Source: Escherichia coli | GTDB lineage: Bacteria > Pseudomonadota > Gammaproteobacteria > Enterobacterales > Enterobacteriaceae | Assembly (NCBI RefSeq): GCF_003334815.1 | Contig: NZ_QOWO01000040.1 | DNA length: 33,548 bases | Direction: 5' to 3' (one strand) | Part shown: piece after piece, positions 1,231 to 2,095 of the stretch | How positions within the stretch are numbered: the first letter of the stretch is position 1 | Layout: the number at the start of each line of letters is the position of its first letter | Made by a program: the position numbers and the translations under genes | Notes under the pieces: generated by a model | What the model saw: the letters and a program-made list of their open reading frames with translations, nothing else | What the model was told of the DNA's origin: nothing | Databases searched by the model: none

Positions 1231-1380
1231 GTACATCACACTGACATACAATAATGTATTTCTTTATGATGTACGTTATTGTAATTCATTGTGACATACA
1301 CTATAGTATTTTCATGTGACATACATATGCGTACATCATATGGAAATACATATGAGTAAATCACTGTGACATACAAGGGG
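1231..1380. repeat. Cluster of TGTGACATAC / GTACATCA repeats upstream of parA (candidate centromere/operator)
   Basis: At least 4 copies of gtgacataca plus inverted gtatttc/gaaatac motifs directly 5-prime of the ParA start. Confidence 0.6.
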
Positions 1381-1384
1381 TACT

Positions 1385-2032
1385 ATGATTATCGTAATCG
1401 GTGGTGATAAAGGCGGCACAGGTAAATCACATCTGGCAACCAACTTAACTGTTTGCCTCTCACAACAGGGAAAGAGAACGGGGCTTGTTGAAACAGACCT
1501 GAATGGCTCGAGCAAAAAATGGAATAAACGCAGAGAACAGGCCGGATTACCGCCCGTCGCGTTAAATGAAGCCTATGGCGACATCAGTGCCAAAATAACA
1601 AAAATGGCGGATGTAGCAGAAATCCTCATTATAGATACTGCCGGATATGACAGCACGGAGTTCAGAACTGCACTAAAAGTTGCAGACATTGTGATTGTCC
1701 CGATCGACCCGCTTGCCCAGGTGGAAGCAGACAGTCTTCAGACTGTGACAAAAATTGTCAGGGATGCGCAAAAAATAAATCCCAGGCTGGCTGCACATGT
1801 GCTCCTGTATAAATGCCAGCCAAATACGTTCAGTGAACAACAGGAATTAAGAGACTCTCTCAACAGCCATGATTACTGGCTTAAACCAATGAAAAGCACG
1901 GTTTCTTTTCTCCGGGCCTTTGTAAGAGCAATGAATCAGGGAATGGGGGTTCACGAGTTAAAAAGTAATGTTAGCGGTGCCAGCCAGGCAAAAGCACAAA
2001 TCGAACTTTTGCTGAAAGAACTGGAACTGTAA
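1385..2032 (+). CDS. parA: ParA/ParF-type partition ATPase (small type Ib Walker ATPase)
   Basis: Deviant Walker A GGDKGGTGKS near N-terminus; 215 aa; followed by a small RHH-like partner gene. Confidence 0.85.
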   Translation: MIIVIGGDKGGTGKSHLATNLTVCLSQQGKRTGLVETDLNGSSKKWNKRREQAGLPPVALNEAYGDISAKITKMADVAEILIIDTAGYDSTEFRTALKVADIVIVPIDPLAQVEADSLQTVTKIVRDAQKINPRLAAHVLLYKCQPNTFSEQQELRDSLNSHDYWLKPMKSTVSFLRAFVRAMNQGMGVHELKSNVSGASQAKAQIELLLKELEL

Positions 2033-2095
2033 ATCACTGTGACATACACTAATGTACATCATTATGAAATACATTGGTGTGAAACAATCAGATTA
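2033..2095. repeat. Second cluster of TGTGACATAC / GTACATCA / GAAATACAT motifs between parA and its partner gene
   Basis: tcactgtgacatacactaatgtacatcattatgaaatacatt. Confidence 0.55.

Follow-up and report, generated by a model that had tools for sequence, protein, structure and literature searches.

A 25-bp palindromic repeat family at three places around the parA operon of an IncX4 plasmid: candidate recognition sites of a predicted ribbon-helix-helix partition protein

Introduction

The partition locus discussed here lies on a 33,548-bp stretch of Escherichia coli DNA (contig NZ_QOWO01000040.1; "the window" denotes this whole stretch) and consists of parA, a gene for an 89-aa partner protein, and ten copies of a 25-bp repeat unit placed around them. 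The described system closest to it in its proteins is parFG of TP228, while the layout of its sites is closest to that of pB171, with two clusters, and of pSM19035, with three clusters that double as operators. In TP228 the sites consist of ACTC boxes, 4 bp long and separated by 4-bp spacers, and the plasmid is not known to have a binding cluster between the two genes. Like TP228 parFGH, the window encodes a small ATPase of the Walker type, to which ParF is the closest relative of solved structure, and a small partner with a disordered N-terminal tail and a predicted ribbon-helix-helix fold; a repeat array is situated directly upstream of the ATPase gene, over the presumed promoter. In contrast to TP228, the partner is not matched by Pfam ParG and ends in an additional C-terminal helix, palindromes of 19 bp that recur every 25 bp take the place of the ACTC boxes, and an intergenic cluster is present in the window and in every relative examined.

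The par2 system of pB171 is of type Ib, and its centromere is split into parC1 and parC2, both bound by one small protein and one of them containing the promoter. A type Ib system with its centromere in two repeat clusters is also what is suggested for the window, although the likeness is one of layout only: the second cluster of par2 is located downstream of both genes and not between them, and its repeats are 6-bp units instead of 25-bp palindromic units. In pSM19035, the ribbon-helix-helix protein omega binds the arrays parS1-3 at three plasmid promoters, and these arrays are both centromeres and operators (PMC3074150, PMC9499535). The three-cluster layout of the window and a cluster at the promoter of the dnaJ-led operon of an IncX3 plasmid recall the delta/omega system. 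This likeness again concerns layout, since the omega sites are contiguous 7-bp heptads on a Gram-positive plasmid, in contrast to 25-bp palindromes, and no clear promoter accompanies the third cluster of the window, which is found at the 3' end of hns.

The par genes of an IncX2 plasmid have only been annotated, as parA/parG (PMC4207749), and according to a study of IncX6, ParB and its sites "could be not located" (PMC5868456). The searchable literature holds no defined centromere for any IncX plasmid and no functional study of an IncX centromere, of ParG in IncX4 or of the motif described below; none of the papers containing the motif concerns plasmids. We propose that the ten units probably serve as recognition sites for the 89-aa partner, a predicted ribbon-helix-helix protein, within a type Ib (ParF/ParG-like) partition system on an IncX4 plasmid. 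The locus is set apart from the systems above by its 25-bp palindromic unit, its conserved intergenic cluster and a partner outside the ParG sequence family. It most likely represents a standard type Ib design, mechanistically expected and not previously described for this plasmid group, and it is unusual only in the conserved cluster before the partner gene and in the extra sites that recur at other places on the plasmid.

The 25-bp repeat unit and its arrangement

Laid out in rows of 25 nt, the repeat regions resolve into a unit composed of a 19-bp imperfect palindrome, GTAnnTCA-N3-TGAnnTAC, and a 6-bp spacer. The original prediction had recognized two short motifs, TGTGACATAC and GTACATCA, as a repeat family shared by three loci; these motifs are the two halves of one 25-bp unit, which occurs ten times in all, in groups of six, two and two at three places around the partition genes (Table 1). 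TGTGACATAC is present exactly five times in the 33.5 kb (at 1290, 1315, 1365, 2038 and 33296), every time within the three clusters. When up to one mismatch is allowed, nine matches are found against 1.95 expected, a number reached in 0 of 100 shuffles. The eight copies of GTACATCA compare with 0.9 expected, and six of them lie in or beside the clusters. Tandem Repeats Finder independently identified a period of 25 at 1281-1375.

A weight matrix was trained on the six upstream units only and the plasmid was scanned with it on both strands. The units outside the training set scored 26.4 bits (2029), 24.5 bits (2054), 20.6 bits (33262) and 20.0 bits (33287), and the highest score elsewhere in the plasmid, on either strand, was 10.6 bits. 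The shuffles and the out-of-sample scores rule out a chance origin of the repeats and, together with the motif counts and the 25-nt register, bear out the shared family.

The main array ends 4 bp before the start codon of parA. The first unit of the intergenic pair overlaps the parA stop codon, and the pair ends 28 bp before the partner gene; the cluster had been correctly placed between the two genes, but its extent is 2029-2078 rather than 2033-2095, as it begins at the parA stop codon and stops short of 2095. The third cluster likewise lies downstream of hns as predicted, with its bounds corrected from 33258-33320 to 33262-33311, and the "nested palindromes" described there arise because two palindromic units sit 25 bp apart. 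We also note an extra GTACATCA at 2100-2107, over the start codon of the partner gene, which is not conserved in diverged relatives.

The proximity of the third cluster to the other two depends on the topology of the molecule. The sequence marks the window as a complete circular IncX4-type plasmid: its ends adjoin each other in the related KV7 plasmid V, save for a 154-bp insertion specific to the window plasmid, and more than 300 IncX4 plasmids in PLSDB, including 33.3-kb mcr-1 plasmids, match the par region at 97.5-98% identity. On the circle, the three clusters span 2.39 kb, in agreement with the predicted distance of about 2.5 kb, and 1467 bp separate the end of the third cluster from the start of the main array.

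The partition proteins

ParA carries a KGGTGKS motif at residues 10-16 (read directly) and matches the NCBIfam family ParA_partition with an E value of 1e-32, a score that does not reach the equivalog cut-off. Among solved structures it is closest to ParF of TP228 (4dzz, E 5e-11), and the best matches in the PDB, ParF 4dzz and ParA 5u1g, cover residues 7-213. As in type Ib systems, it is a small deviant Walker A protein lacking an N-terminal helix-turn-helix domain, and it is too short for a specific DNA-binding domain.

The partner reading frame starts 74 bp downstream of parA. The Pfam scan listed a weak match to RHH_1 (i-E 0.0037) and CopG_antitoxin and nothing else, and a profile of the 43-sequence partner family matches CopG at E 0.04. 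In the AlphaFold2 model built on the alignment of this family (mean pLDDT 79, above 90 over residues 41-80), a disordered N-terminal tail (residues ~1-35) is followed by a core (~35-72), whose two helices are arranged as in ribbon-helix-helix proteins, and an extra C-terminal helix (75-88). The top Foldseek matches of the model are all ribbon-helix-helix proteins, namely CdbA, CopG (rmsd 1.0 Å, probability 0.97), TacA and Arc, and ParG (1p94) is found at rank 15 with an rmsd of 7.2 Å over the full length. A small partner encoded downstream of the ATPase and predicted to adopt this fold is the second characteristic of type Ib. The tail has a conserved K-L-x-K-P start and a conserved F20, which may take part in ParA activation.

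No ParG was found in the Pfam scan or in a phmmer search of PDB sequences, and membership of the partner in the ParG sequence family is rejected on this basis. The description of the partner as "ParG-like" hence applies to its architecture, which follows the same domain plan, and not to its sequence family; the remaining gene calls, a ParF-like ParA, a predicted ribbon-helix-helix partner and an H-NS family protein encoded by hns, are upheld. The partner belongs to a small family: of 1.84 billion cluster representatives, 63 match at E up to 0.001. Its distant members were drawn from a 50%-representative library, and a protein-database search yielded mostly near-identical proteins.

Conservation of the sites with this partner

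Four lineages with this type of par module were compared: the window, pCSZ4 (L003), a metagenome contig (L007) and a draft genome contig (L008). The partner is 83-100% identical among them where its gene is intact; the L007 partner is 83% identical to that of the window, and in L008 parA is diverged and the partner gene frameshifted. The arrangement of six units before parA and two in the intergenic spacer, and the 25-bp period, are retained in each of the four. Across the eight orthologous units, the GTA, TC, TGA and ATAC positions are invariant in 84% and the remaining positions in 32%. Invariant half-sites with free spacers are the pattern expected of bases contacted by a protein.

The best candidate for the parA promoter from a consensus scan is located inside the main array (Table 1). 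Its TTGTAATTC and CTAnAGTA elements are invariant in all four lineages of the alignment (A1), and it is the likely parA promoter to judge from its sequence. A second consensus match, CTGACA-18-TATGAT at 1241-1270, lacks conservation in both L007 and L008. A promoter of the partner gene's own, inside the operon, was also considered; consensus-like elements are present, and their conservation is too poor for a call.

Co-variation of repeat and partner in other modules

Six further partner homologues were compared, from IncX3, from IncX1, from pSAM7, which is of the IncX4 type but has another par module, and from three loci in metagenomes or draft genomes (L011, L012 and L013). In eight of eight loci the repeat sequence differs with the partner, whereas its positions, one in front of parA and one directly before the partner gene, are constant. 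The other IncX modules, i.e., those of IncX3/IncX1 ("ParA/CopG-like"), IncX2 ("parA/parG") and the pSAM7 type of IncX4, share with the window the gene order, the two repeat positions and partners of 20-33% identity, and differ from it in that each has a repeat sequence of its own. The cluster before the partner gene is, in the compared loci, a hallmark of the whole partner family.

The IncX3 and IncX1 partners are ~30% identical to that of the window in the alignment (33-38% by tblastn). Both plasmids have 16 RTAAAGA motifs upstream of parA, and the parA-partner spacer holds four more in IncX3 and three in IncX1. In pSAM7, whose partner shows 20% identity, GTGTATTAATACAC palindromes are found upstream of parA, two more lie between the genes, and one follows parB just before the next reading frame. 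Repeats of the TGTATGTAC type occupy both positions in L011 and L012, and L013 has ATATAATGATTATATA palindromes that are also 25 bp apart. In L013 an extra reading frame splits parA from the partner gene, yet one copy of the palindrome sits directly before the partner gene. The predicted β-strand residues of the partner differ as well, with LASFRIP in the window and L007, LMNFRLP in IncX3 and INLTMT in pSAM7. To this extent the original suggestion of a split centromere or operator set holds: the co-variation across the eight loci assigns the repeats to the ParA/partner module.

The modules also differ in their neighbours. A divergent resolvase gene shares the region upstream of parA in IncX3 and IncX1, and a co-oriented tyrosine recombinase gene is found there in pSAM7. 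Extra clusters are placed differently too: IncX3 has one at the dnaJ-operon promoter, in pSAM7 the extra site follows parB, and in the window the extra pair follows hns. The IncX3 cluster, in pEC25_NDM-7 (L004, 32851-32893), consists of four RTAAAGA motifs in the orientation < > > <, as in the IncX3 intergenic cluster. It is situated directly upstream of a strong TGGTATAAT promoter-like element, its proximal edge being ~100 bp before the dnaJ-led operon, which runs on into the relaxase genes. No such remote third cluster is present in the IncX1 plasmid examined, and the window has no equivalent at the position that corresponds to the IncX3 dnaJ-operon site, as no unit above 10.6 bits occurs outside its three clusters.

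As a separate observation, the palindrome before the L013 partner gene is nested in a larger inverted repeat (AACGCCG...CGGCGGTT), behind which a run of T occurs. This terminator-like hairpin at 2932-2990, between the extra reading frame and the partner gene, is a hint of control by attenuation, of which the window shows no sign.

Proposed mechanism and alternative explanations

The mechanism outlined here combines the anatomy of the locus with established knowledge of TP228 parFGH, pB171 par2 and pSM19035 delta/omega. Each 19-bp palindrome probably accommodates two partner dimers, because the centres of its half-sites are 11 bp apart, a spacing that suits two dimers on one face of the DNA. 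The partner would coat the six-unit array before parA and form the partition complex, with the array as the centromere, and its flexible N-terminal tail would stimulate the ATPase of nucleoid-bound ParA and thereby position the plasmid copies. As the array contains the promoter-like element, which all four lineages conserve, the same binding should repress parA, and with it the operon. The intergenic pair, a family-wide second cluster, would most likely tune expression of the partner itself and/or extend the complex as a second centromere arm, by analogy with parC2 of pB171; the site that persists beside the partner gene in L013 favours control of the partner's own expression. The pair after hns would be an accessory, lineage-specific outlier, which the partner should bind as well and which the system would not need.

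Several observations weigh against recognition of the repeats by the partner in such a partition system. The sequence scores behind the ribbon-helix-helix assignment are weak (E 0.004 to 0.04), and the monomer model used for it lacks a formed β-strand. Shuffled sequences give promoter-consensus matches at least as often as the region itself, and the promoter-like element between parA and the partner gene is poorly conserved. Conservation of the hns-proximal pair within IncX4 carries little information, the plasmids being 97-99% identical overall. The searchable literature contains no experiments on binding, repression, stability or incompatibility that concern the par locus of an IncX plasmid.

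The terms "centromere" and "operator" describe functions that the sequence alone does not distinguish, and the repeats might serve as transcriptional operators only, for parA, the partner gene and perhaps a gene near hns, while the true centromere lies elsewhere or has a different sequence. Clusters that overlap or adjoin promoter-like elements would fit this, as would the L013 site that stays by the partner gene although an extra reading frame parts this gene from parA, the IncX3 cluster directly upstream of the strong promoter of the dnaJ-led operon, and the further pSAM7 site just before the reading frame after parB. We nevertheless regard a purely regulatory role as improbable: simple repression would need fewer than six tandem units, no other repeat family exists in or beside par (the sole other array in the plasmid is that of the 22-bp rep iterons), and centromere and operator coincide or overlap in parH/OF of TP228, parC1/parC2 of pB171 and parS of pSM19035. 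Still less credible, to the point of being hardly tenable, is that the units are sites of another binder, such as a replication initiator, a recombinase or a host protein, or form RNA or DNA hairpins. The units are palindromic, so that the third cluster could form hairpins just past hns, and in IncX3 and IncX1 a divergent resolvase does share the region upstream of parA. However, no recombinase gene adjoins par in this IncX4 plasmid, and across eight loci with differing neighbour genes it is the partner that the repeat sequence varies with. Iterons of a pi/Rep initiator of the R6K-like kind were tried as an identity and rejected, since the rep-proximal 22-bp repeats (Table 1) form a family distinct from the 25-bp units. 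The Rfam gathering scan of the window matched AgrB at 207-299 only and no family at the clusters, and terminator scans gave no call at the clusters and no site on the + strand at 33262-33345 (scan of 32500-33548). An intrinsic terminator after hns was discarded on direct reading as well, the palindromes there being A+T-rich with no T run behind them. Binding by the partner thus remains the favoured explanation of the arrays, which are present, unique in the plasmid and co-varying with the partner protein.

The pair beyond hns

The original prediction counted the hns-proximal pair as part of a split centromere, which goes too far. The pair is not found in L007, nor between hns and the array in L008, it is cut by IS26 in a successful mcr-1 lineage, and it lies beyond a toxin-antitoxin module. 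The insertion is present in pCSZ4 (IS26 at 1034-1738) and in most records of the epidemic mcr-1 IncX4 plasmids, inside unit 1 of the pair (window 33262-33274); the junction reads GTATACATCACACAG followed by the IS26 end GGCACTGTTGCAAA, and TCACACAG on both sides of IS26 is consistent with an 8-bp target duplication. In KV7 plasmid V, unit 2 has a substitution at a core position. Among other plasmids, this cluster is found only between hns and the toxin-antitoxin module and never abuts the array; in L006, whose assembly is error-prone, the gap from the pair to the array is shorter, ~465 bp.

Judging by its content, the 1.47-kb gap to the main array is modular, mobile DNA. It holds an AgrB/DqlB type I toxin-antitoxin module, 207-299 (-) and 507-722 (+), extending left to ~33345. 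The AgrB antisense RNA (Rfam RF02891, 55.6 bits) and the DinQ-like toxin DqlB (NCBIfam NF041473, E 2.5e-19) were identified by database models, and GGAAG(A/G)TACTCTACATCCAAC is shared between ~279-300 and 527-549. The same module occurs in an IncX1 plasmid, there without the 25-bp units.

These features lead to the question of whether the pair is a functionless relic, left over after insertion of the toxin-antitoxin module near or into an older array, or a hitchhiking duplicate. This explanation covers the third cluster only and is compatible with partner binding at the other two. It gains from the lack of the pair in the two diverged relatives of this par module, from the splitting of unit 1 by IS26 in highly successful plasmids, from the core-position substitution in KV7 plasmid V, and from the fact that the DNA from ~33345 on belongs to a module known without the units. 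On the other side, the half-sites of both units are still close to consensus and their spacing is exactly 25 bp, the IS26 insertion leaves one and a half units side by side, and IncX3 independently has a remote third cluster, which suggests repeated recruitment of extra sites. We consider a relic a substantial possibility, falling a little short of even. Our proposal is instead that the pair is a lineage-specific, dispensable accessory site; because both units fit the matrix and keep the 25-bp spacing, the protein that binds the other clusters should, by prediction, bind this pair as well.

Plasmid context

The coordinates of the partition locus and of other features of the plasmid are collected in Table 1.

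Table 1. Features of the partition locus and its surroundings in the window
Feature	Position	Strand	Description	Proposed role
Main array	1231-1380		Six tandem units at 1231, 1256, 1281, 1306, 1331, 1356	Centromere and parA operator (proposed)
Intergenic pair	2029-2078		Units at 2029, 2054	Partner-gene operator and/or second centromere arm (proposed)
Outlying pair	33262-33311		Units at 33262, 33287; 10 bp past hns stop codon	Accessory binding site (proposed)
parA	1385-2032	+	215 aa, without N-terminal DNA-binding domain	Walker-type partition ATPase
Partner gene	2107-2376	+	89 aa	Centromere-binding protein and repressor (proposed)
Best parA promoter candidate	1279-1307	+	TTGTAA-17-TATAGT, over units 3-4 inside the array (consensus scan)	Candidate parA promoter
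hns	32787-33251		H-NS family gene	
pir-like rep gene	4394-5266	-		
Replication iterons (presumed)	5500-5587		Four perfect or near-perfect 22-bp direct repeats ACCGAGGAAGTTATCATGTTTA, beside the pir-like rep gene	
Iteron-related copies	5318-5361			

IncX4 plasmids of the pSAM7 type match the window at 99% identity until ~25 bp before the hns stop codon (hns of pSAM7, L005, at 4688-5152, compared with window 33100-33226). Past that point they differ wholly downstream, where they have a tyrosine recombinase, another ParA, a 100-aa partner and other repeats. It follows that the par region is a swappable cassette within IncX4.

The 154-bp insertion at the ends of the window is a miniature element (33472-33548 joined to 1-77) with 38-bp terminal inverted repeats of the Tn3-family type (GGGGTTCCGTGGGCATTTCTGCGATAACACACGCTAAG). 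It is bordered by a 5-bp target duplication, the direct repeats GTAAT at 33467-33471 and 78-82, and is missing from the otherwise collinear KV7 plasmid V. A small, very basic reading frame begins 3 nt downstream of the element (ATG at 81-83). Directly upstream of the par array, the inverted 13-mers AGTTACAACATTC (997-1009) and GAATGTTGTAACT (1122-1134) surround a G+C-rich hairpin. The 13-mer is also found upstream of the tyrosine recombinase gene in pSAM7 (~6551-6563), and an unrelated 83-kb Salmonella plasmid (H25) shares window 1000-1212. The 13-mers and hairpin may be a relic of a recombination or multimer-resolution site.

Implications

IncX4 and IncX3 plasmids are major carriers of mcr-1 and of the carbapenemase genes blaNDM and blaOXA-181, and their inheritance depends on this partition module. 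A defined half-site consensus with coordinates, and its equivalents in IncX3, IncX1 and pSAM7, make the system directly testable. The candidate sites predict par-mediated incompatibility groups within IncX, according to which the two IncX4 par variants should be par-compatible, and they are targets for incompatibility-based plasmid curing.

A broader and more speculative idea, which we rate as rather unlikely but worth stating, is that the ribbon-helix-helix partners of IncX plasmids are not dedicated centromere binders but plasmid-wide regulators whose sites have been recruited repeatedly outside par. The 3' end of topB-hha-hns in this IncX4 lineage, the promoter of the IncX3 dnaJ-led operon and the gene after pSAM7 parB suggest such recruitment. 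If so, either the dosage of the partition protein would be coupled to how strongly genes for maintenance and transfer are expressed, or the sites would shield par from read-through. Omega of pSM19035 and KorB of RK2 would then be comparable regulators, and the conserved cluster before the partner gene would be the core of the circuit.

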